Shown here one piece after another: positions 1,771 to 60,637 of a DNA stretch of 64,000 bases. The position numbers were made by a program, and so were the translations under genes. Below the pieces are notes generated by a model that was given only the letters and a program-made list of their open reading frames with translations, was not told where the DNA came from and did not search any database. The DNA lies in sequence record NC_027381.1. One strand, given 5' to 3'. Origin of the DNA: Escherichia phage Pollock. Each line of letters opens with the position of its first letter. Positions within the stretch are counted from its first letter, which is position 1.

Positions 1771-3005
1771 GACTCAATATGCAACAGTTTACAGCTTTCC
1801 AATATATCAAATTAGATATTGCTAACTCTTTTGGTTTAGATAAAGAACTGTTTGATGACCGTATCAAATGGTTTGAAGAAAACAAAAATAATTTAGCTAA
1901 TTTGGTAAATGATGCAGATGAACCTGCTCAATTCTACGCAGGTATGTTGGCATACCAAGATGTACTGGAAGGTAAACCAATTGGTTATTTAGTAGGTATG
2001 GATGCTACTGCATCTGGATTGCAGTGTATGGCTGCATTAACTGGCTGTAAGACTACCGCTGAAACAGTAAATCTTATTGACCCTAATTGTCGTAAAGATG
2101 CTTATACCGATGGCTATAAAGTCATGGGAGAACTACTTAATGGCAAGATTGATAAGATTGACCGTAAGGATTTGAAGGGAGCTATTATGACTCACTTCTA
2201 TGGTTCTCAAGCAAATCCTAGAAGTGTATTTGGTGAAAATACTATAGAACTACAAAAGTTCTATGAAACTGTTCAAACCATTGCTCCCGGTGCAAATATG
2301 CTACGAGATGATTTAATCAATCTCTGGCAACCAAAAGCACTTCAACATTTATGGGAATTACCAGATGGCTTTACTGCTGTCGTTAAAGTAATGACCATGA
2401 AAGAAGAAAGCTTTGAAGTAAATGAATTAAATAGTTCCTTTACTCATCGTTATTGGGTTAATGAGGGTCAGGATTTTGGTTTATCACTTGCTGCTAATGT
2501 TGTTCACTCTGTAGATGGGATGGTAGTACGTGAGATGAATCGTCGTGCTAACTACGATGAAACCAAAATACAGCGTGTATATGAGCTTCTGACTGGTTCA
2601 AACAATACAGGTATTGTGGACTATACAGTAGATGATAAACAGCTTAAGAGAGCTATTGAGCTTGCTGAAAGACATCGTTTTGTTTCTACTGTGATGATTG
2701 AGTTCATTAACCATGAGAATGTACATATGATTCCTTTATGGATTAAGAACCAACTCATCGAAATTATTGAGAAGATGTTGGCTCATAAACCATATGCATT
2801 AATTGCAATTCATGATTGCTTTAAATGCCATCCTCTGTATATGAATAACGTGCGTCAGAACTACATTGATATCTTTGCTCAGATTGCAGATAGCACAATG
2901 CTTCAAGCAATTGCATCTCAAATCTCTGGTAAACGTATTCCAGTAACTAAACTGTCTAATGACCTTTCAACATACATTCGTAAATCCAACTACATGCTTA
3001 GTTAA
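1767..3005 (+). CDS. T7-like single-subunit RNA polymerase, catalytic C-terminal-half subunit (N4 RNAPII large-subunit-like)
   Basis: RIKWFEENKNNL (cf. T7 RIKFIEENHENI), GMDATASGLQ (motif A, cf. DGSCSGIQH), IMTHFYGSQ (motif B, cf. MTLAYGSK), IAIHDCF (motif C, cf. IHDSFGT); T7 sequences recalled from memory. Confidence 0.85.
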   Translation: MRLNMQQFTAFQYIKLDIANSFGLDKELFDDRIKWFEENKNNLANLVNDADEPAQFYAGMLAYQDVLEGKPIGYLVGMDATASGLQCMAALTGCKTTAETVNLIDPNCRKDAYTDGYKVMGELLNGKIDKIDRKDLKGAIMTHFYGSQANPRSVFGENTIELQKFYETVQTIAPGANMLRDDLINLWQPKALQHLWELPDGFTAVVKVMTMKEESFEVNELNSSFTHRYWVNEGQDFGLSLAANVVHSVDGMVVREMNRRANYDETKIQRVYELLTGSNNTGIVDYTVDDKQLKRAIELAERHRFVSTVMIEFINHENVHMIPLWIKNQLIEIIEKMLAHKPYALIAIHDCFKCHPLYMNNVRQNYIDIFAQIADSTMLQAIASQISGKRIPVTKLSNDLSTYIRKSNYMLS

Positions 3006-3014
3006 GGAACTTCT

Positions 3015-3395
3015 ATGTCCATTTTCACTAATGTAACTATTACCATTGACCCATTAGGTCATTACGTATCTATACCTCGTGACCGTATCCGTGATTCTTT
3101 AGGATACATTCCTCAAATTGTGGAACGTGGAGTACGTCAAGCCAAAGATGAAAAAGATGCTGGTTTCTGGATTTGGACAATTTATCAGTATGGTAATCCT
3201 CTAAATCCACCTGAAACCAAATTGAAATTTAAAGATGGTATTCTGACCTATCCAAAAGAAGAACCAAAATATCCAATAGCTGTTTATCACCTTAATAATG
3301 TTGCCGGATTAGATATCCGGTTTTGGCAATATGAACATGCTATGACTGTATATACAGTTAATGGTAAAGCAATTTTATTCGGGAGAATGGATTAA
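3015..3395 (+). CDS. hypothetical protein
   Basis: 126-aa ORF, co-directional and tightly packed. Confidence 0.4.
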   Translation: MSIFTNVTITIDPLGHYVSIPRDRIRDSLGYIPQIVERGVRQAKDEKDAGFWIWTIYQYGNPLNPPETKLKFKDGILTYPKEEPKYPIAVYHLNNVAGLDIRFWQYEHAMTVYTVNGKAILFGRMD

Positions 3396-3736
3396 TGATT
3401 AAAGTAGGTAATATGGTCAGAATGGTCTTTACTAAAGACCCAGAACAACATACATCCAATGTAATAATCAAAGGGTTATACATGGATAAAGCATGGGTAA
3501 TGTATGAACAGTCAGGTAAAGATGAAATTATTGATTTAGCTGACGTAAGCTTTGGCAACCCTATTCCAGAAGAACCTGCAAATCATTCTTTTGTAGCCAG
3601 AGACTATAGTGGTAATTGGCTATATTGGGACCATAAAAAAGGTTACTGGTATGAATGCAATGACCCAACACAACACGAAGAACAAGAAGTCTCTTTACCG
3701 ATTAATCAAAGCAAGCCAACTCAACCCATTTACTAA
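3395..3736 (+). CDS. hypothetical protein
   Basis: 113-aa ORF; start overlaps the upstream stop (ATGA-type). Confidence 0.4.
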   Translation: MIKVGNMVRMVFTKDPEQHTSNVIIKGLYMDKAWVMYEQSGKDEIIDLADVSFGNPIPEEPANHSFVARDYSGNWLYWDHKKGYWYECNDPTQHEEQEVSLPINQSKPTQPIY

Positions 3737-3893
3737 AATCTGGTTAAATGGGCGTCATTATGACGTCCATAATGTCTTTGATAAAGGGGAATATATTCAA
3801 GCTTACTTATGGACAGGCTGGGTATATTCCCCCTGCTTATTTAATAAAGAGGATTATATATGGCATTTAGTAAATTATGGAAAGCTATCCTAG
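3609..3893 (+). CDS. hypothetical protein (start uncertain; overlaps upstream ORF in another frame)
   Basis: 94-aa ORF overlapping 3395..3736 by 128 nt; no Met after the overlap. Confidence 0.25.
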   Translation: MVIGYIGTIKKVTGMNAMTQHNTKNKKSLYRLIKASQLNPFTKIWLNGRHYDVHNVFDKGEYIQAYLWTGWVYSPCLFNKEDYIWHLVNYGKLS

Positions 3894-4111
3894 TATTCAC
3901 TTTTTTGTTAATTGGTAGTGCTTATAGTAAGGAACACACATTAAATCCTATATCTGAAGAAATGGATGTTCAAAGAATCCATGATGATGAAGCAGGCGTT
4001 ACTTGCTGGATTTTATATGTTCCTAATACATCTAGATATCAAATGCCTGACCATTACAGTATGAGTTGTTTACCTAATACTGTAATCAAACCAGAAGCAA
4101 TTAAAAAATAA
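3860..4111 (+). CDS. hypothetical small protein with N-terminal signal-peptide-like segment
   Basis: 83 aa; hydrophobic N-terminus LVFTFLLIGSAYS; followed by a terminator. Confidence 0.35.
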   Translation: MAFSKLWKAILVFTFLLIGSAYSKEHTLNPISEEMDVQRIHDDEAGVTCWILYVPNTSRYQMPDHYSMSCLPNTVIKPEAIKK

Positions 4112-4137
4112 ATAATTAAAACTTATAACTTCATACT

Positions 4138-4168
4138 AAGCCTCCTTTTATGGAGGCTTTTAGTTTTA
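4138..4168 (+). terminator. rho-independent terminator
   Basis: aagcctcc-ttttat-ggaggctt hairpin followed by T-rich run. Confidence 0.55.
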
Positions 4169-4214
4169 TACAAATGCTTCTTATACAGGAGCATCTTTAT
4201 AAAACTATGTAGGA

Positions 4215-4670
4215 TTGGATATGAAAGTTAAACTGAAAGTACTTCCATTTAATAACACCAATATGAGCTTACCTAAACCAGCAACAGATGGTTCTGCTGG
4301 TATTGATTTACGAGCCAATACAGTTATGCCATTCGAACTTAAACCGGGAGAAACTACTCTGGTAAATACTGGTTTAGCTATCCATCTGGATGATGTTCAC
4401 TATGCAGGTATGATTTTACCTCGTTCTGGGTTAGGGCATAAACATGGTATTGTGCTTGGAAATCTTACAGGTCTCATTGATAGTGATTATCAAGGGGAAC
4501 TGATGGTAAGCCTCTGGAATCGCTCTACAAAGCCTTTTACTATTAATCCAGGTGACCGTATTGCTCAGTTAGTTATTGTGCCTGTAATGCAGCCTGAATT
4601 TGTTATAGTAGACTCTTTTGAAGCTACTGAAAGAGGCGAAGGTGGTTTCAACTCTACTGGAGTTAAGTGA
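4215..4670 (+). CDS. dut: dUTP diphosphatase (dUTPase)
   Basis: 151 aa; near-identical blocks to E. coli Dut as recalled: [59 protein letters not shown]. Confidence 0.92.
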
Positions 4671-4843
4671 TGACTGAACCAATGAGTAAGTTTGAGCTAG
4701 AAAGACATATCCATAATCTTAAGGAATATGATTCCAAGATTGCTGGTCATGAATCTGAAGTAGTTCGTCTACAAGAAGAACGTCGAGAGTACATTAATCG
4801 ACACAATCTTAACAAGATTGCAGAGAAGGTATTTCCTGCTTAA
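4670..4843 (+). CDS. hypothetical small protein (57 aa, coiled-coil-like)
   Basis: ATG overlaps dut stop (GTGATGA); not in ORF track because under 60 aa; translated by eye. Confidence 0.3.
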   Translation: MTEPMSKFELERHIHNLKEYDSKIAGHESEVVRLQEERREYINRHNLNKIAEKVFPA

Positions 4844-49337: not shown

Positions 49338-49838
49338 ATGTCTCGTGATATTTCAAATAATGGATTGAAATTTACTGCTGCTTGGGAACAGTTAAGAACC
49401 AAAGCATATAGAGCTACACAAAATGAGAAGTACCTAACGATAGGGTATGGTCACTACGGTCCTGATGTTAAACCGGGTGACACTATCACTGCTGATGGTG
49501 CTTTAAATTTACTGTACAAGGATATGGCTAAAGCTGTTCGTAAAGCATCAGAATTAGTTCATCCATCTTTTAATCAAGCTCAATTCGATGCCATTGTAGA
49601 CCTATGTTTTAACGTAGGTATTGGTGTTATCGAAAAAGATAATGTTCTTGGTGATTTCGATGATGCTGTTCGTTTAGGGGATATTCCCAAAGCCAGAGAA
49701 ATCATGGGGCAATTTATCTATCAAAATAAAAAACCATTATTAGGATTAAAAAGACGAGCAGTAGGACGTATTGCTCTGTTTGATGGTAAGTCTTGGTTAG
49801 AAGCAGAAGCTATCGGGAGAGGAGTTAAATCTCTATGA
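49338..49838 (+). CDS. endolysin, GH24 lysozyme family (P22 gp19-like)
   Basis: 166 aa; WEQLR...AY...LTIGYGH, TITA, NQAQFDAIVDLCFNVG, RRAVGRIALF match phage lysozyme blocks as recalled. Confidence 0.8.
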   Translation: MSRDISNNGLKFTAAWEQLRTKAYRATQNEKYLTIGYGHYGPDVKPGDTITADGALNLLYKDMAKAVRKASELVHPSFNQAQFDAIVDLCFNVGIGVIEKDNVLGDFDDAVRLGDIPKAREIMGQFIYQNKKPLLGLKRRAVGRIALFDGKSWLEAEAIGRGVKSL

Positions 49839-50383
49839 TAAATAAAACCAAGTTATTAATGCTTGGTTTGACTGCTATAGCTCTCACTTCGGTGGGAGCT
49901 TTTTTATCTTGGTATATAGCCAGTAATAAGTATGAATATGAAATAGCTATATTAAAGTCAGATTACAGTCTGAAATTAAAAGCTATATCAGATGAAGCAG
50001 CATTCAAACTAGGTAATGAAATAGTACGTAATAACCAACTACAACAAGAATTGAATGAATTAGATTCTAAATATTATAGAGATTTAGAGTATGAAAAAGA
50101 ACGTAATAAACAACTTAGCATTGATGTTAGTAATGGTACTCGTAGGGTGCAATTCGCAGAAACAAGTCTTGCAACCTGTAAGCAATCCAGAAATACAGGA
50201 ACAATCTCCCCCAGCATGGGTAATGGAACCACCATCGAACTCTCTCCAATTGCTGGACAAAACATTCTCAATATCCGAGAAGGAATTATTGCAGACCAAA
50301 TTAAATTGAGATATTTACAAGATTACATTCGTAAAGTAGAGGCATCCAGATATGGCAAAACTAACATCCAAACAAAGAAATAA
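49835..50383 (+). CDS. i-spanin (Rz-like)
   Basis: 182 aa; N-terminal TM helix then coiled coil; contains embedded +1-frame ORF. Confidence 0.55.
   Translation: MINKTKLLMLGLTAIALTSVGAFLSWYIASNKYEYEIAILKSDYSLKLKAISDEAAFKLGNEIVRNNQLQQELNELDSKYYRDLEYEKERNKQLSIDVSNGTRRVQFAETSLATCKQSRNTGTISPSMGNGTTIELSPIAGQNILNIREGIIADQIKLRYLQDYIRKVEASRYGKTNIQTKK
50091..50309 (+). CDS. o-spanin (Rz1-like lipoprotein), embedded in the i-spanin gene
   Basis: 72 aa; signal peptide with lipobox LVGC; Pro-rich mature part. Confidence 0.5.
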   Translation: MKKNVINNLALMLVMVLVGCNSQKQVLQPVSNPEIQEQSPPAWVMEPPSNSLQLLDKTFSISEKELLQTKLN

Positions 50384-50552
50384 ACTTCCTGATTCAGCTT
50401 TTGCTGGTCCAGATAGGAGTTATCCGGTACATGATAAAGCTCATGCAGCTAATGCTAAAGCTAGAGCAACACAGCAATATGAAGCAGGTAATCTCTCTAA
50501 GTCACAAAGAGATAAGATTCGAGCCAGAGCTAATAAAGTTTTATATGGTTAA
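50352..50552 (+). CDS. hypothetical small basic protein
   Basis: 66-aa ORF followed by terminator. Confidence 0.35.
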   Translation: MAKLTSKQRNKLPDSAFAGPDRSYPVHDKAHAANAKARATQQYEAGNLSKSQRDKIRARANKVLYG

Positions 50553-50556
50553 AATA

Positions 50557-50582
50557 AGCCCCCAAATAAGGGGGCTTTTTAT
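50557..50582. terminator. terminator between convergent lysis (+) and tail (-) genes
   Basis: agccccc-aaataa-gggggct hairpin followed by tttttatt. Confidence 0.6.
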
Positions 50583-50585
50583 TAC

Positions 50586-53441
50586 TTACTTATTCTCAAG
50601 TGCATCTATTCTACTAACCAATACATTAACAGTTTCTGCTAATGAATCAATTTGATTAATAGTAGCTCTCAGACACCACCAAAGAAGTTCTTCTTTTCTA
50701 AAGCGATATCGAGTACCTGCTTCTAATGCAGGACGTACTAGAACTTTTTGAGATTCTCTTACAAGTACTAAGGTTGTACCACTTAATAGCTCTCCTTCAT
50801 CAGAGTAGATAGCAGGTTGTACAGGTACTTCTTCATACTCTGCTGGAATCTCTTCATATTCTGCTTCAACAGCATCCCAAGAATCTAAACAGAAAGCACT
50901 GTATTTTCTCCAATCCAGTCCATGTTTAGTCATGATATCAATTGCTGCTTGCACAGTAGGACCAGAATGTAATCTGGCATCATCACCTTCTTCTTCAATT
51001 CGTTGTAACCATCTCCATACAGAAGGTAAACGAGCTATTTCTGCAAATGCAGCAATCTCTGATGAATTGATATCTCTTGGTTCATCTTTCAATGTTGCAT
51101 CAGATACAACAGTCGGTGAATTATTAAAGTAAGCATTACTGAATGCTTTACTAGAAGAACCAATATTATAGGTATTGTTAGTTGAAGGTAAGAAGTTACC
51201 TTTAATATCTGTATCCATCTGCATGAATGCAGTGCCGTTACTACGGGCTGCAATTACATAAGCGTCAGCAGAATCGTCATAAATACCCAGATTCCCGGAT
51301 GTTGATACCTGGAAAGCTCCCGCCTTCAGCGTGGTACTGATAGTCATGCGCTTCTGGGTTTTGTCATCCGATTTAATATTCACGCCCTGCAGGTATGCCA
51401 CATTCCAGCGATTTGGCGATGACCCCAGATTCATTGCCTTGTCCTGGTCGGGATGAAATGACGGCGAGACCGGACTCAATAATACAGACCAGGTCTCGCT
51501 GCCATCGGTACAATAAAGCCTTGTGCGCCCCGCCGACTGAGTATCGTTCATTGAGTAAAGGTTAATCCCGCCACCGCTCAACAAATTCACGTCAGCGCGT
51601 ATTTCCAGACAATCGTGCACGGCGTTCAGGCGGTGTTTCCACTGAACGAAGCGGCCTGTGTATTCTCCGGTTCGGAACGCATCCCCGAACAAACGAAAAA
51701 CAGCAGCAGAAGTGTCTGTATCCGGAGCCTCCTTTCTGACCTCAAATAACGGGCGATGCGAGCGCAGATTCTGCTCATAGGCTGCCACCTGGAAGTCTTC
51801 ATTGGGTGACAGGGCAATATTTACAGCATTGGGACATAGAAAAAGACTGGCATGACTATCAGGATAAGCTACACCAAAAATTGAATACCCAGTACCATCA
51901 TAAGGTTCTACAGAGACAATAGCTTTAGTACGCTTTGTTCTTGTACCACGAGTATAAGTCTTTGTTGAATCCCATTGACTTGCATTACTTGTTCCATAAG
52001 TAGTAGGTGTCCAATAAGTTGGGTTTACTGGAGAATACCCGGAAAAATTAGCTGTTCTTGCAGCAAAGTATTTTCCTTCAAATAAAACAACATCTGCTGT
52101 GGCATACCAAAAATCCATATCAAGCAGATATAGTTTACCTTTATATAAAGCTAATCCTTCTGGTTCTTGTAAACATGGATAACCTAATTCTGCATTACCA
52201 AGCATTTTCTCACGTCCATACTTAGCACGCACACCATCTACATTAAACCATCTAATAATCTCACCTGTGAATAAATTATAAATAACAATACGGTGGGTTA
52301 AGAAAACACCATTGTATCCATAATATACATATAGATATTGGTCATCACTTGCCATCCCTTGGAAAGATTGAGCCACCATAGGGATATTATTTATATGAAA
52401 TCTATATTTAAATGTTAAAGAAACACGGTCAAATACATAAATTATACGGTGGTCATCTCTGTTATACTGTACGTGAACAGGCTCACCTATAGTTTCAATA
52501 ACTAATGTTTTACCACTTTCAGATAATGCAAGTGTGATAATTTCATCGTTGTTATAGAAGTCTGATTTAAATACTTCTACTCTAGTAATATTTGATGTAG
52601 TAGTATCTCTTCCTTTCCAATTAATTATATTGATACCTTTACTGTCTTCAGTAGGTAAATACAAAATTACACCACCATTCTCATATATAGCCCCGATACT
52701 CTGATGACCTATATCTTCAAATACTGGAGAGAAAGAAATAACAGTAGGGTTTTCATTGTCCCCTTCTGGATTAAATGTTGTTTCAACAATTCTAACTCCA
52801 CCTGTTACTGGTTGATGGATAAACATACGTAAACCATCTGGAGTTTCACAAATACAGAATCCCTGACTTAAATTTTCTGCACCTTCAAAAATTCCTGAAT
52901 AATCAATATCATGTACAACTTTATGTTGTAGAGCTATATTATCAACAATAGGGTTATGTGTTGCTAAAGTTCCTACAGGAACCCATGCACCAACATGAAT
53001 ACCTCCACTTTTTTCTGGAGTAGAATCTGGTTCAACTACTTTAGGTAGTTCTCCATCCCATCTATATAAACCAGAAATACTTGTAAGTACTTCATTCTTA
53101 GTAGTTATAGTAGTTCCTGTAGTAAATGAACCAGGTACAGTTATAAACTCTTCTCGTTGTGCCCCTAATTCACCTAAATCTACAGAACCTTGTGAATGTA
53201 CAAGTACAGCATCAGTACCAAGACTGATGGCAGTAGTACCAGAAGAAATGTCAGTAGGTAAGGAATAAGCTCTTTGTGTTGTCTTATCATAAATAACCTT
53301 ATAACCACCTAAATCTACTCCTTCTGAGAAGTAGACTACTTCACTCTGTTTAACACCAAACTTACGAGCAATAGCTTGTTTGTTGGTTAAGATTCCAGTT
53401 GAACCTCTACCACCTTGGCTGAACATTTCGTTCATATACAC
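50586..53441 (-). CDS. tail fibre protein with C-terminal intramolecular chaperone domain
   Basis: 951 aa; C-terminal SDATLKDE ... IAAFAEIARLPSVWRW ... coiled-coil end; contains GC-rich segment 51240-51860. Confidence 0.65.
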   Translation of the reverse strand: MYMNEMFSQGGRGSTGILTNKQAIARKFGVKQSEVVYFSEGVDLGGYKVIYDKTTQRAYSLPTDISSGTTAISLGTDAVLVHSQGSVDLGELGAQREEFITVPGSFTTGTTITTKNEVLTSISGLYRWDGELPKVVEPDSTPEKSGGIHVGAWVPVGTLATHNPIVDNIALQHKVVHDIDYSGIFEGAENLSQGFCICETPDGLRMFIHQPVTGGVRIVETTFNPEGDNENPTVISFSPVFEDIGHQSIGAIYENGGVILYLPTEDSKGINIINWKGRDTTTSNITRVEVFKSDFYNNDEIITLALSESGKTLVIETIGEPVHVQYNRDDHRIIYVFDRVSLTFKYRFHINNIPMVAQSFQGMASDDQYLYVYYGYNGVFLTHRIVIYNLFTGEIIRWFNVDGVRAKYGREKMLGNAELGYPCLQEPEGLALYKGKLYLLDMDFWYATADVVLFEGKYFAARTANFSGYSPVNPTYWTPTTYGTSNASQWDSTKTYTRGTRTKRTKAIVSVEPYDGTGYSIFGVAYPDSHASLFLCPNAVNIALSPNEDFQVAAYEQNLRSHRPLFEVRKEAPDTDTSAAVFRLFGDAFRTGEYTGRFVQWKHRLNAVHDCLEIRADVNLLSGGGINLYSMNDTQSAGRTRLYCTDGSETWSVLLSPVSPSFHPDQDKAMNLGSSPNRWNVAYLQGVNIKSDDKTQKRMTISTTLKAGAFQVSTSGNLGIYDDSADAYVIAARSNGTAFMQMDTDIKGNFLPSTNNTYNIGSSSKAFSNAYFNNSPTVVSDATLKDEPRDINSSEIAAFAEIARLPSVWRWLQRIEEEGDDARLHSGPTVQAAIDIMTKHGLDWRKYSAFCLDSWDAVEAEYEEIPAEYEEVPVQPAIYSDEGELLSGTTLVLVRESQKVLVRPALEAGTRYRFRKEELLWWCLRATINQIDSLAETVNVLVSRIDALENK

Positions 53442-53451
53442 CTCTTTGTTT

Positions 53452-53481
53452 TTCTAAAAAAATCCCCTCCGAAGAGGGGAG
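53452..53481 (-). terminator. rho-independent terminator (minus strand)
   Basis: tcccctc-cgaa-gagggga hairpin followed by 7 T on minus strand. Confidence 0.6.
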
Positions 53482-53487
53482 TAAAGC

Positions 53488-56400
53488 TTAGTAAAATTTC
53501 TTTTCAGTAGAAGATTCTAAAACAGAAAGACGTTCTTCTATTCTTTCTAATCTTCTGCGTAGATAAGCAGCCTCAAGCCATAAGCATTGGTCTGCACGTA
53601 TTCCCCAACGATTACCAGCCTCTCTTACGAGAACTTTTTCACCAGTATCATATTCTTCCTCTACTTCTGTTTCCACACCATCAATAATGGTAGATACTTT
53701 TCTAGTTGCTAATACTGGCTCATAAGAGTCTTCCCATTCGTCATAACAAAGAAGACCAAATTTAGTTCCATCTAAACCATGAGCAAGGAAAGCATCTCTT
53801 ACCTGTTGAGCTATTACACCAAAATGCCAACGAGCATCATCATTTTTAAGTTTGATAGCAGAGAGCCAACGGAAAGCTATGATTCTTACATCTTCCCAAG
53901 CATCCAGAATTGCATCTCCATCATATTCTGAAGACAGAGATGAGCTAAGTTCACTGGTAGTTACTGGCTCTGTTTTCTCTCTTTCATCAGATGTATTTAT
54001 TGTTCCAGATACAGCATAAACCTGAGTAGGTCTATTATCTGCAACACCAAGACTATAGGAGTTATCCAGATAAGGATGCCAATGACCATTTGGACTTACT
54101 TTCCATCTCCATGTGTCATTACTTCCCAAATGTAAATCAGCTCCATTTGCAGCCATTAAAGCTACATTGGAAGTGCTCATGTACATCTGGAAATAACCAA
54201 CGCCTTTTCTCTGCCATTCATAAAGCAAGCCTGTTTCCTGTTCGTTGTTGAACTTTAATGCTTTTATAGGTGAATTTTCTCCCCATGTTGTATCACCCGA
54301 ATAAATTACATGAGGAACCACCTCAGGATTATCAGAGATACATATTTCTTTAGATGGTAGAGATAGCGTTCTTTTATCTCCTGCACCAAGCGCATAAATC
54401 AGAATGGTGCGTCTGGTTGCCCCCATAACATCAGAATGCTCAGATACTATTGTTACCGATGGATATAGAACACCATCGTAATCAACAAAATGCATTCCTT
54501 CTGATTCACGGAATGTAGGAGTAGAACCAATGATTCTAGGTAAATCAGTATCACCTAAATCAGAGATAGCTTTCCGTACATCATTACCTAACAAGTCACA
54601 ACTGGATAAGTACTGGGTTTGTCCAAATGTAATATTCCCGCAATACATATACAGATGCGAGCCATCAGAACAAAATCCACTAAGTGATGTGGTTTCATCA
54701 CCACCGACTTGTGAAAGTTGAAGAGTAAACTCATGAGTACACATAGATGAATAATCACCTTGTGTATCAAAAATATCTGTAGAGAAAATGCGGAATGTTT
54801 GATTGTTGTAGTCAGCATTATCAGTAAATCTAACAATCAACCATTTACCATCAAGAGAAATAGTAGGTGTAGTTGAGCTACCTGCTGTACGAGTTTCTTC
54901 TACAACTCTAAACAATTCAGGCGCATCAATTTCACCGTCTGTGTTACTTCTCCAAGAAAATCTAACAATCCCGTGAGAACCGCCTACAGAAAAATCAAAA
55001 TCAGTATGGGTAGTAGAACCTGCTGGTGTATCTGGTGCTGTAGTCCATAACTTAATTGCATTATTTAAATTCTGTACTGCTATACCCTGATGACCCAATC
55101 TGTCTTCAGGTAACATAAAGTCAGTAGAACTATTAATAATTCTTGAGTCAGCAGAATACTTATTCCAGATAGAAACAGTAGTGGCATTACCATCTATTTC
55201 TGTATTGTGGTTAGAGTAATAAGCCCTATCTACAGGGTCATATGTGAATGTCTGTAGTGTTCTTATTTGTCCACGACCCTGAGCAATAGGAATGAATCTT
55301 ACTGCTGAATTAGATTCTCGACCTATAGTATAAACATCCCATGCTGGCTTCTTATTAGTAAGAAGCTCCCCATTCATAGGAATGGATTTTCCGTTTATAA
55401 GCCAAGTACCATTAATATAGATATTTTTAAAGAAGGTTTTAGTAGTGGCATATACTTTGCCATCCATATCTATAACCTTGGATGTAACATCTGATTCTAG
55501 TTGCTCAAATGCACTAGTATCATCAGTAACACCATTACCTACTATTCCCCATGCACGAGGGTCATACTCATCTTTCCAACGAGCTATCTGTAAATCAGGA
55601 TATAAAGTAGCACCATCAGGATTACTAATTTTATCCTGAAGGTCTAAACCAGTAATTACTTCATCTAAGATAACTACTACGTTACCGGGAGTATAAGTAA
55701 GTTTTCCATCTGCTACTGTAGAGATATAAACATTTCTTAAAGCAGTAGGTAACCTATAGATTTTCTGTTCATCTACAGAATAGATAATAGTTTTATTATC
55801 TAATGCCTGACTGGTATTAGTACTTAAAATTACTTCTGAATTTTTTACATTAGTGGCTCTTGCTACCTCTTGAATAGTACGGTCAGCAATCTCAATAACT
55901 TCTTGCTCACCTCCAATCTGAATAATCAAACGGTCATTAGCAACCAATGGTTCAGTAAGAGTAATGGTTTGAGCATTAGCATCTACAAAGTAGGATTGAG
56001 TTTGTAATCCCTTATAGAATCTCAAACCATTCTTAAATACCGCAGGAATATCCTGAAAGGTATATGGAATATTGATAGTAGTTTCACCACCAACAGCAGC
56101 ACCTTCATTGTATAACCAGTTAAAAATAGTCCAGTTATCAATATTTGGATTATCAGGTACAGCAGGAGTACCACTAAGAAGTAAAACTACTTCATCTCCT
56201 TCCTCTAAAGCTTGAGATAATGTAACCAAGTTATTGGAAATAGAGAATTGAAATCCATAACCAACAGATTGCATGTAGCCATTAACAATAATAAATGGAA
56301 CACTTACAGTTCCATTGGGTACTGTAATAGTAGTTTCTCCACCTAAAGCAAAGCCACTCTTATAAACATAAGGAATGTAGGAACCACCACCATTTCCACC

Positions 56401-56754
56401 AGACGAGGATGTACCTACAACAATCCAACTACCTGTAGCTCCAGATTCATTAGGAATGATTCCAGAAGTATCGTTTTCTACATACAAATAATCTGTATAG
56501 ATTATGTAACTAGAATCAAAAGTATTATAGATACGTGCATACTTGACAGATACAGGAAGTGCTTTTAATTCATCTTCTGAAGTAACACAAATAAGTACTC
56601 CATACTTATTTAGAAATTCATAGATAAAGTGAATTTCTCCTAAGCTATCATATACAGCTTTAACTACGTCATATGCTGTACCAATAAACTTTTCTACTAA
56701 TGGAGCATTGTTACCACAACAAGTATTAGTAGTTCTGATTGACATTATACCCAT
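53488..56754 (-). CDS. large tail / receptor-binding protein with C-terminal intramolecular chaperone domain
   Basis: 1088 aa; C-terminal SDEREK (S-D-x-R-x-K-like) ... ILDAWEDVRIIAFRW ... LERIEERLSVLE. Confidence 0.6.
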   Translation of the reverse strand: MGIMSIRTTNTCCGNNAPLVEKFIGTAYDVVKAVYDSLGEIHFIYEFLNKYGVLICVTSEDELKALPVSVKYARIYNTFDSSYIIYTDYLYVENDTSGIIPNESGATGSWIVVGTSSSGGNGGGSYIPYVYKSGFALGGETTITVPNGTVSVPFIIVNGYMQSVGYGFQFSISNNLVTLSQALEEGDEVVLLLSGTPAVPDNPNIDNWTIFNWLYNEGAAVGGETTINIPYTFQDIPAVFKNGLRFYKGLQTQSYFVDANAQTITLTEPLVANDRLIIQIGGEQEVIEIADRTIQEVARATNVKNSEVILSTNTSQALDNKTIIYSVDEQKIYRLPTALRNVYISTVADGKLTYTPGNVVVILDEVITGLDLQDKISNPDGATLYPDLQIARWKDEYDPRAWGIVGNGVTDDTSAFEQLESDVTSKVIDMDGKVYATTKTFFKNIYINGTWLINGKSIPMNGELLTNKKPAWDVYTIGRESNSAVRFIPIAQGRGQIRTLQTFTYDPVDRAYYSNHNTEIDGNATTVSIWNKYSADSRIINSSTDFMLPEDRLGHQGIAVQNLNNAIKLWTTAPDTPAGSTTHTDFDFSVGGSHGIVRFSWRSNTDGEIDAPELFRVVEETRTAGSSTTPTISLDGKWLIVRFTDNADYNNQTFRIFSTDIFDTQGDYSSMCTHEFTLQLSQVGGDETTSLSGFCSDGSHLYMYCGNITFGQTQYLSSCDLLGNDVRKAISDLGDTDLPRIIGSTPTFRESEGMHFVDYDGVLYPSVTIVSEHSDVMGATRRTILIYALGAGDKRTLSLPSKEICISDNPEVVPHVIYSGDTTWGENSPIKALKFNNEQETGLLYEWQRKGVGYFQMYMSTSNVALMAANGADLHLGSNDTWRWKVSPNGHWHPYLDNSYSLGVADNRPTQVYAVSGTINTSDEREKTEPVTTSELSSSLSSEYDGDAILDAWEDVRIIAFRWLSAIKLKNDDARWHFGVIAQQVRDAFLAHGLDGTKFGLLCYDEWEDSYEPVLATRKVSTIIDGVETEVEEEYDTGEKVLVREAGNRWGIRADQCLWLEAAYLRRRLERIEERLSVLESSTEKKFY

Positions 56755-57449
56755 CCTCTCATTTCAGGCTTCATATTAGATTGACCAATGTAAGCATTGT
56801 TCAAATCCAAATCCTCTATTCTCTTACACTCTGCTTCATATCTTTGAGACCATTCAACACCTTTAGCAGCAGTCTCTTGATTTGGTGAGTTAGAGTACAG
56901 TTGAGATGCAATGTAATAAGTAAGAGCTTTTTCATGACTAGCAGGAATACGAATATCAGTATTTAAATCTGTAGTATCCAAAGGAATCTTTGGATGATTG
57001 GCTCTATACGTAACAAACAATGCATTAGTTTCGATAGGAGATACTATCTGAATACAATCAAATGATGGAGTCATGATTGAACCACATTGAGGTTCATCAT
57101 TTAAATAGAGGCAACAACCTACTTCACTAAAAACACTCTCTACTCTAATTACATCCTCAGAGAATCTGTCAAAAGGAGTATCTTTAATGTATTTATATGG
57201 TTCAGTAGATTCAGTATTCATTTCAGCATACTGAACTCTTAGATAGTATTTACTAATGTGTTCATACTGCTGAATGATTACTTCCTTTTCTAGTAAAGGA
57301 AATCTTGTATGTAATGCAGTTAAGCCTGCATTAAGTTGAGCAATAATTTTAGGATAATCTTGTTCACGAATACCCTCTCCATTATTACCTACCCTAATCA
57401 GGCTTAACTCACCTACAGACAGCATCTGGAATAGTTCAGATAATTTCAT
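56745..57449 (-). CDS. hypothetical virion/tail-associated protein
   Basis: 234-aa ORF overlapping the tail gene start. Confidence 0.4.
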   Translation of the reverse strand: MKLSELFQMLSVGELSLIRVGNNGEGIREQDYPKIIAQLNAGLTALHTRFPLLEKEVIIQQYEHISKYYLRVQYAEMNTESTEPYKYIKDTPFDRFSEDVIRVESVFSEVGCCLYLNDEPQCGSIMTPSFDCIQIVSPIETNALFVTYRANHPKIPLDTTDLNTDIRIPASHEKALTYYIASQLYSNSPNQETAAKGVEWSQRYEAECKRIEDLDLNNAYIGQSNMKPEMRGWV

Positions 57450-60307: not shown

Positions 60308-60384
60308 CGGAATGTAGCACAGCCGGGTAGTGCATCTGCTTTGGGAGCAGAGGGTCATAGGTTCAAATCCTATCATTCCGACCA
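60308..60384 (+). tRNA. tRNA-Pro (anticodon UGG)
   Basis: hand-folded cloverleaf: acceptor CGGAATG/CATTCCG, anticodon loop TTTGGGA, T-loop TTCAAAT, encoded CCA. Confidence 0.75.
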
Positions 60385-60389
60385 AATTA

Positions 60390-60467
60390 TTCCCGTTTAG
60401 CTTAATTGGTTAAAGCACCCGACTCATAATCGGATGATTACAGGTTCGAATCCTGTCACGGGAACCA
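60390..60467 (+). tRNA. tRNA-Met or Ile2 (anticodon CAU)
   Basis: hand-folded: anticodon loop CTCATAA, T-arm ACAGG-TTCGAAT-CCTGT, encoded CCA; exact 5' end ambiguous by 1 nt. Confidence 0.65.
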
Positions 60468-60471
60468 AAAT

Positions 60472-60547
60472 GCATCCTTAGCTCAATGGATAGAGCAGTA
60501 GCCTTCTAAGCTATTGGTTACAGGTTCGAATCCTGTAGGATGCACCA
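60472..60547 (+). tRNA. tRNA-Arg (anticodon UCU)
   Basis: hand-folded: acceptor GCATCCT/AGGATGC, anticodon loop CTTCTAA, T-loop TTCGAAT, encoded CCA. Confidence 0.75.
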
Positions 60548-60552
60548 TATTA

Positions 60553-60637
60553 GGGAGTATGGTGAAATTGGTAAACACAAGGGATTTAAAATCCCTCGCT
60601 TAATTGCTTACGAGTTCGAGTCTCGTTACTCCCACCA
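60553..60637 (+). tRNA. tRNA-Leu (anticodon UAA)
   Basis: hand-folded: acceptor GGGAGTA/TACTCCC, anticodon loop TTTAAAA, long variable arm, T-loop TTCGAGT, encoded CCA. Confidence 0.75.

Follow-up and report, generated by a model that had tools for sequence, protein, structure and literature searches.

Two kinds of tail structure have been described that bear on the genes considered here. In phage G7C, the tailspike gp66 is anchored to the tail, and a second tailspike, gp63.1, makes no contact with the particle and binds the T4gp10-like region of gp66 (PMC6872550). The corresponding proteins of Shigella phage B2, gp49 and gp48, co-purify, their complex has been solved, and they have been found in virions (the Moo19/B2 paper, PMC11654681). 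Other tail proteins, such as the K1F endosialidase (3GW6) and the L-shaped tail fibre pb1 of phage T5 (4UW8), end in an intramolecular chaperone of the Peptidase_S74 family; in T5 pb1 the self-cleavage mechanism involves Asp1239, Arg1250 of the neighbouring chain, Thr1263, Ser1264 and Lys1269 (PMC4690869). We examined two adjacent tail protein genes of Escherichia phage Pollock (sequence record NC_027381.1) at positions 50586-56754 of a 64,000-nucleotide stretch, hereafter the window. Both proteins resemble the G7C and B2 pairs at their N-termini, and both carry a Peptidase_S74 domain with a Ser-Lys dyad at their C-termini. They are very probably two tailspikes of one branched receptor-binding complex, each built of a propeller, a stalk and a chaperone domain that would be removed by self-cleavage.

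Chaperone domains at the C-termini of both tailspikes

The two open reading frames (ORFs), as called mechanically, lie on the minus strand at 50586-53441 (951 amino acids, aa) and 53488-56754 (1088 aa). We refer to their products as the branch and the anchor, respectively, in keeping with the N-terminal homologies described below. An earlier note, made from the letters of the window without database searches, had claimed that both proteins end in an intramolecular-chaperone-type domain, citing the segments SDATLKDE and SDEREK and the hydrophobic and coiled-coil regions after them, and had suggested a comparison with the Peptidase_S74 and chaperone profiles. That claim was borne out. Peptidase_S74 (PF13884, "Chaperone of endosialidase") matched the 951-aa ORF at 37.3 bits (E 3.4e-9, residues 780-842) and the 1088-aa ORF at 41.0 bits (E 2.4e-10, residues 922-993), against a Pfam gathering threshold (GA) of 22, and the Ser-Lys dyad is in register in both. 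The Pfam domain begins precisely at the Ser of SDATLKDE (residues 780-787) in the one protein and of SDEREK (residues 922-927) in the other. These motifs start 172 and 167 residues from the respective C-termini, and each domain lies at the extreme C-terminus of its tailspike, directly after the stalk. The regions that the note called hydrophobic and coiled-coil match the long terminal helix of the domain, which is predicted in the monomer models of both proteins (predicted local distance difference test score, pLDDT, about 55-85 in the chaperone region) and which in the anchor aligns with the terminal helix of 3GW6.

Searches of the PDB with the C-terminal pieces gave the same picture. The best matches of the anchor were 3GW6 (E 5.9e-37), 9VVR (1.3e-27), 3GUD (1.5e-21) and 4UW8 (9.3e-15), with residues 23-212 of the anchor fragment aligned to residues 92-274 of 3GW6, essentially the whole domain. 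The branch matched 9VVR (E 1.7e-18), 7Y5S (2.5e-17), 6EU4 (5.2e-17), 4UW8 (1.5e-16) and 3GW6 (7e-9). With the anchor model as query, Foldseek returned 3GW6 first and the phi11 receptor-binding protein (RBP) next, which is weak corroboration from a monomer model of mean pLDDT 55; among the 50 Foldseek matches listed for the branch monomer model there was no chaperone-domain structure. One could still argue that the C-termini have nothing to do with intramolecular chaperones and resemble them, in their SDxxxK motifs and helical tails, by chance. A motif this short can arise at random, and it is weak proof when taken alone: the 1088-aa ORF has another S[DN]xxxK, at residue 421. However, the Pfam scores lie 15-19 bits above the gathering threshold, the PDB matches reach E 5.9e-37 over the full domain, and the anchor model matches 3GW6 in structure. 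We rejected chance resemblance as already refuted by these Pfam, PDB and Foldseek matches, and give it next to no probability.

The likeness to the endosialidases ends at the stalk. Homology of the anchor to the K1F enzyme covers the full length of the chaperone domain, Ser-(4 residues)-Lys dyad included, and the branch gives a weaker match; however, the domain upstream is not an endosialidase here, and the predicted propeller is phi11-like. Neither End_beta_propel (PF12217) nor End_beta_barrel (PF12195) matched either spike in the Pfam scan; the endosialidases of UE-S5b and K1-5 score 681-749 bits on these sialidase propeller and barrel profiles. An endosialidase identity was therefore rejected, the matches to End_tail_spike and End_N_terminal being below threshold and the sialidase propeller and barrel profiles absent. 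Only the last ~30 residues of the stalk and the chaperone domain are shared with the GH58 endosialidases. Similarly, the pre-cleavage motif and the dyad align with T5 pb1, but the receptor-binding domains that precede them are unrelated.

Two spikes that each carry Peptidase_S74 are uncommon but well precedented, including within the Schitoviridae. Phage K1-5 has two different tailspikes with SDxxxK sites, gp46 (a K5 lyase, 54.4 bits for Peptidase_S74) and gp47 (an endosialidase, 40.1 bits). However, K1-5 is an SP6-like autographivirus in which both spikes sit on a separate adapter protein, whereas one spike would itself be the anchor here, and its central domains are a lyase beta-helix and a sialidase propeller rather than two predicted propellers of phi11 type. 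The Gamaleyavirus phages UE-S5a/b, UE-M3/M6 and PBM-2/3, which combine an endosialidase with a K5 lyase, belong to the same family as the phage studied here and have the same adaptor-anchor-branch order. In the N4-like UE-S5b, Peptidase_S74 scores 36.6 bits on the anchor endosialidase and 52.9 bits on the branch K5 lyase, and both spikes were found by virion proteomics (PMC11927229). These phages differ from ours in having an Enquatrovirinae rather than a Humphriesvirinae-type backbone, in their receptor-binding modules, and in the low identity of their spikes to those of the window outside the N-termini and C-terminal domains. In KP32, a cleaved chaperone is found on the first RBP only. A tblastn search with one of the C-terminal domains found 308 places in 302 records, a count that we did not use as an estimate of frequency; tblastn under-detects divergent copies, finding one place in K1-5 against the two found by Pfam. 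The chaperone domain and the way it works, branched tailspikes, and phages that bear two of these domains have all been documented before, and the locus raises no new question.

Anchor and branch modules, predicted propellers and cassette exchange

In a phmmer search of the PDB, anchor residues 6-368 matched B2 Gp49 (9D83/9D84) with E 2.2e-140, and residues 12-372 matched 9D80, a 1086-aa tail fibre protein, with E 8.1e-119. The PDB chains Gp49 and Gp48 agree in name and length with gp49 (410 aa) and gp48 (777 aa) of phage B2. The N-terminus of the branch matched Pfam Tail_spike_N (PF18668) at 64.6 bits (GA 25) and, in the PDB, the CBA120 tailspike 4OJ5 (E 5.9e-69), B2 Gp48 (9D84, 7.4e-63) and G7C gp63.1 (4QNL, 1.9e-57). 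Since the N-termini are strongly homologous to those of gp66 and gp63.1 of G7C and of gp49 and gp48 of B2, a pair of known structure, we infer that the two proteins are the anchor and the branch of one branched tailspike complex. The 1085-aa anchor (the length from its probable true start, see below) would attach to the tail through its gp66/B2-gp49-like N-terminal module, and the 949-aa branch would dock on it through its gp63.1/B2-gp48-like N-terminus.

The earlier note had read the locus as two independently matured fibres, and only half of this stands. The chaperone domains are separate, one per protein, and share only 28% identity, so that folding and maturation of each trimer may plausibly be independent. 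Separate attachment of two independent fibres to the tail, which was implicit in that picture, does not fit the N-termini, which are of the anchor and branch types: that of the branch is of the gp63.1/B2 gp48/CBA120-tailspike type, which binds gp66 in G7C and gp49 in B2, and the first ~365 residues of the anchor are those that match B2 gp49. We consider separate attachment very improbable.

The likeness to G7C and B2 extends to homologous anchor and branch N-termini (E 1e-57 to 1e-140), the same order of the two genes and the same hairpin between them. It does not extend to the distal parts. B2 gp49 is a 410-aa adapter without a distal module, G7C gp63.1 and B2 gp48 are SGNH esterases, and FSL SP-058 has a P22-type tailspike module. 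A direct scan found Peptidase_S74 absent from both spikes of FSL SP-058 and of B2 (gp49, gp48), the nearest relatives by backbone among those scanned, and from both spikes of G7C (gp66, gp63.1), which is more distant.

Both central modules are predicted to be beta-propellers, and their best structural matches are RBPs of the staphylococcal phages phi11 (5EFV), 80alpha (6V8I) and P68 (6IAB). These come from phages of Gram-positive hosts, are only 11-14% identical and do not carry the S74 domain. An AlphaFold model of branch residues 160-951 shows an all-beta region of about 350 residues (10-360 of the fragment), where the block-mean pLDDT is mostly 70-94. Its best Foldseek matches were 5EFV (E 3.5e-12), 6V8I and 6IAB (E 1e-9 to 3.5e-12 for the set), although whole-chain template modelling (TM) scores were low, at 0.26-0.42; five-bladed glutaminyl cyclases matched the propeller with target TM scores of 0.60-0.64 (0.64 for 3NOL). 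The profile Phage_RBD_prop (PF21311, GA 23.7) remained below threshold, at 13.6 bits in the branch and 18.5-20.2 bits in homologs; P0052-P0054, homologs of the anchor, give such sub-threshold matches. For the anchor, Foldseek with the distal model gave 5EFV at E 2.6e-6 from a poor model (mean pLDDT 55), so the link between the two propellers rests on profile-profile alignment, with the model as weak corroboration: restricted to the propeller columns, hhalign aligned anchor and branch with a probability of 97.8% and E 1.1e-12 over 187 columns. Anchor and branch share a distal plan of propeller, stalk and chaperone and are distantly homologous. To our knowledge, the phi11-type propeller fold has no functional characterisation in enterobacterial phage spikes.

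The remaining parts of the anchor also have recognizable relatives. The cap or linker before its propeller matches residues 212-299 of 9VVR and 207-301 of Dpo31, with a sub-threshold match to End_N_terminal. Its stalk gives a sub-threshold match to End_tail_spike at residues 890-921, which corresponds to profile positions 129-160 of 160 and ends exactly at the predicted cleavage site.

The distal parts of both spikes recur in other contexts. For the branch, identity is 70-79% to tail proteins of Escherichia coli prophages that have PF12571 at the N-terminus, and ~50-55% to fibres whose N-terminus is T7-type. The distal part of the anchor is ~80% identical to P0052, which has a P22 head-binding N-terminus, and to P0053, an E. 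coli tail-fibre protein, and ~60% identical to P0054, which has a gp63.1-type N-terminus. Across other phages and E. coli prophages, these distal cassettes are found behind at least five types of N-terminal anchor. Because such similar distal parts sit behind different N-terminal types, the chaperone domain moves together with the receptor-binding cassette rather than with the phage lineage, in agreement with the general modularity of RBPs (PMC6872550). SP-058, B2 and G7C, with no chaperone domain against two here, illustrate this cassette-linked rather than lineage-linked inheritance. The E. coli prophage relatives of the distal parts also suggest an Escherichia or Shigella host.

Predicted cleavage sites and a degenerate internal copy

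The structures 3GW6 and 4UW8 are of Ser-to-Ala mutants, and the mutated Ala marks the position of the nucleophile. In alignments with them, S780/K785 of the 951-aa ORF and S922/K927 of the 1088-aa ORF fall on Ser911/Lys916 of K1F and Ser1264/Lys1269 of T5 pb1; counted from the corrected starts, these are S778/K783 in the branch and S919/K924 in the anchor. As a check on the T5 numbering, adding 969 to the chain index of 4UW8 reproduces all five residues given in PMC4690869. The pre-cleavage region of the anchor aligns with that of T5 pb1 with Asp, Arg and Thr conserved, so that the anchor retains all five T5 residues (D897, R908, T921, S922 and K927 in ORF numbering). Autoproteolysis of both spikes seems likely from sequence. 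By analogy with the K1F endosialidase and T5 pb1, each chaperone domain would trimerise first and template the folding of the intertwined stalk, and the Ser-Lys dyad would then cut the chaperone off. The predicted products are 85.9 and 19.6 kDa for the branch and 101.2 and 19.3 kDa for the anchor; release of the ~19.6 and ~19.3 kDa fragments would leave kinetically stable mature spikes of ~86 and ~101 kDa. Constructs for expression of these spikes must retain the chaperone domain, and the predicted processing also bears on how virion proteomics is read.

Several points weigh against reading the locus as a branched complex of self-cleaved spikes. Trimerisation, cleavage, branching and the receptor-binding role are predictions. 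The structural models are of monomers, with a mean pLDDT of 67 for the branch and 55 for the anchor, and in the stalk and chaperone regions their confidence is low to moderate. The role of the propellers may be binding or enzymatic. Finally, of the five T5 residues the branch keeps only Ser and Lys: N755, A766 (with K765 adjacent) and V779 replace Asp, Arg and Thr. This last point raises the possibility that one C-terminal domain, most likely that of the branch, assists folding but is not cleaved, and stays as the distal tip of the mature spike. Besides the Asn, Ala and Val at the equivalents of Asp1239, Arg1250 and Thr1263, such an account could draw on the retained C-terminal modules of other branched RBP systems, for example KP32 gp38, and on the replacement of Ser by Cys in some homologs, which indicates that the site can drift. 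However, the retained modules of KP32 gp38 are carbohydrate-binding domains and not S74 domains, and in the branch Ser and Lys are in register and conserved across the homolog set. The auxiliary positions also vary in known members of the family. The K5 lyase of K1-5 likewise lacks the Asp, with its Arg in the same -15 register, and 9VVR and 6EU4 have the same TVVSDA form as the branch; the K1-5 K5 lyase, with its similarly variant pre-site, belongs to a group for which autocleavage has been reported (Schwarzer 2007, as cited in PMC6872550). Since the K1-5 K5 lyase and 9VVR vary at the auxiliary positions, we treated these residues as variable rather than as a strict requirement of the family, and dropped them as a criterion for membership. 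An uncleaved domain on one of the spikes is unlikely in our view, and cleavage of both spikes remains the favoured reading.

The Ser/Lys dyad is kept in the homologs that retain the domain, except in P0030 and P0055-P0057, where Cys takes the place of the nucleophilic Ser. Such homologs occur for both cassettes (P0030 in alignment A1, P0055-P0057 in alignment A2), with the forms ...IVCDARLK and ...NTCDARLK. The sequences suggest a natural Ser-to-Cys swap of the nucleophile.

A stretch at residues ~647-697 of the branch, upstream of its predicted cleavage site, is a degenerate internal copy of the stalk end and pre-cleavage motif. Its local alignment to the true site of the anchor scores 62, against a shuffle mean of 23.6 (standard deviation 4.6), and none of 2000 shuffles reached that score; the copy is closer to the true site of the anchor than is the branch's own true site. 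It is conserved in homologs and includes a weak match to End_tail_spike at 661-686. We considered whether SDDKTQK in this copy might be a second functional cleavage site, and rejected this: with Asp in place of the nucleophile and no chaperone domain behind it, we regard the stretch as a relic. It may mark the junction where an older cassette once ended, or it may have arisen by duplication of part of the stalk. On a more far-reaching account, the two spikes, distantly homologous throughout their distal parts and produced in one cell, would be kept from forming mixed trimers by their strongly diverged chaperones (28% identity); the cassette, mobile as a whole between at least five anchor types, would represent a hitherto undescribed class of enterobacterial receptor-binding module, a lectin or else a new glycan-degrading enzyme, and the relic would mark an old junction. 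We hold this to be doubtful.

Gene starts, gene order and neighbouring features

The features of the locus are collected in the table. Together with the predicted cleavage sites and mature sizes, the domain maps are of value for the annotation of both receptor-binding proteins.

Features of the tailspike locus (window coordinates; boundaries marked ~ or described as approximate are estimates)
Feature	Coordinates	Strand	Evidence	Remarks
Virion structural/adaptor gene, N4 gp67 / B2 gp50-like	56745..57449	-	phrog_2125 virion structural protein, E 9.3e-85	234 aa
Anchor tailspike gene, G7C gp66-like position	53488..56745	-	PHROG tail protein/tail spike matches	1085 aa, 120.5 kDa
Putative virion-anchor and branch-binding module of anchor	55651..56745	-	phmmer vs PDB	~aa 1-365
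Cap/linker before propeller of anchor	55354..55647	-	PDB matches	~aa 367-464
Predicted central beta-propeller of anchor	54361..55353	-	hhalign, Foldseek	approximate bounds
Stalk of anchor	53992..54360	-	End_tail_spike, T5 pb1 alignment	ends in pre-cleavage motif ...YLDNSYSLGVADNRPTQVYAVSGTINT
Chaperone domain of anchor	53491..53991	-	Peptidase_S74, 3GW6, Foldseek	167 aa, 19.3 kDa; Ser codon 53989-53991
Terminator-like hairpin, gap between tailspike genes	53463..53480	-	sequence	TCCCCTCTTCGGAGGGGA then T7
Branch tailspike gene, G7C gp63.1 / B2 gp48-like position	50586..53435	-	phrog_19921 tail spike protein, 1916.7 bits	949 aa, 105.5 kDa
Putative N-terminal attachment module of branch	52956..53435	-	Tail_spike_N, PDB matches	~aa 1-160
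Predicted central beta-propeller of branch	51876..52928	-	AlphaFold model, Foldseek	
Stalk of branch, between propeller and cleavage site	51105..51875	-	beta-rich, monomer poorly modelled	low model confidence
Internal degenerate copy of stalk-end/pre-cleavage motif in branch	51351..51503	-	local alignment	...NLGSSPNRWNVAYLQGVNIKSDDKTQK
Chaperone domain of branch	50589..51104	-	Peptidase_S74, PDB matches	172 aa, 19.6 kDa; Ser codon 51102-51104
Bidirectional terminator-like hairpin, branch gene / converging lysis cassette	50556..50577	both	sequence	AAGCCCCCAAATAAGGGGGCTT on + strand, complement on -

Each of the mechanically called ORFs probably begins a few codons ahead of the real start. In the branch gene, the true start is probably the ATG at 53435 rather than the GTG at 53441; the former has a Shine-Dalgarno sequence (AGAGG) 6 nucleotides upstream, and solved homologs begin with MNEMFSQGG. 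For the anchor gene it is probably the ATG at 56745 rather than the start at 56754, with a ribosome-binding site present and a TAATG overlap with the stop of the 234-aa gene. P0051, a database homolog 99% identical to the anchor protein, is 1085 aa long, with its gene called in this way on its contig. As for the hairpin between the two genes, a stem-loop has been described at the same spot, in the g66/g63.1 gap, in phages of the G7C set and proposed as a recombination boundary.

The window comes from an N4-like podophage of the Ithacavirus type. Its positions 28000-50500 are 80-83% identical at the nucleotide level, over 95-100% of their length, to Shigella phage B2 and Salmonella phages FSL SP-058 and SP-076, all classified as Schitoviridae, Humphriesvirinae, Ithacavirus. 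Overall, backbone identity to Ithacavirus phages is about 82%. By megablast against 50,697 phage records, no record covers more than 10% of the tailspike region 50586-56754, so that within this collection the two tailspike genes have no close described relative. The genes follow an N4/G7C-like order of terminase, the 234-aa adaptor or structural protein, anchor spike, branch spike and a converging lysis cassette (two holins, lysozyme and Rz), which is identical in G7C, SP-058 and B2. The 234-aa adaptor gives a sub-threshold match to SU10_adaptor and is syntenic with G7C gp67 and B2 gp50. An independent metagenomic contig from ENA (L001) is 96-97% identical to the window and has the same spike pair, with Peptidase_S74 on both.

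Some further differences were seen around the locus. The metagenomic contig has ~1.9 kb extra at its positions 2841-4702, which resemble a second copy of a gp69-like gene (~79% identical) together with terminase-region-like fragments; either a duplication or the chimeric assembly of two strains could account for it. FSL SP-058 (L003, 10655-12028) and B2 (L005, 8608-9981) have three small genes that separate the branch tailspike from the lysis cassette, among them an annotated head fibre/decoration protein (B2 gp45). In a comparison confined to this position, these have no counterpart at window positions 50552-50586 or at the corresponding place in the metagenomic contig. Upstream of the terminase region, four tRNA genes (Pro-TGG, Met-CAT, Arg-TCT and Leu-TAA) are clustered at 60308-60637 on the plus strand of the window, against 9-10 in the tRNA clusters annotated in FSL SP-058 and B2. 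Finally, within the lysis cassette, a 72-aa ORF at 50091-50309 on the plus strand is nested in the Rz-like spanin gene (49835-50383) and begins with a lipoprotein-type signal (...LVGC), a sequence that fits a putative embedded Rz1 o-spanin.

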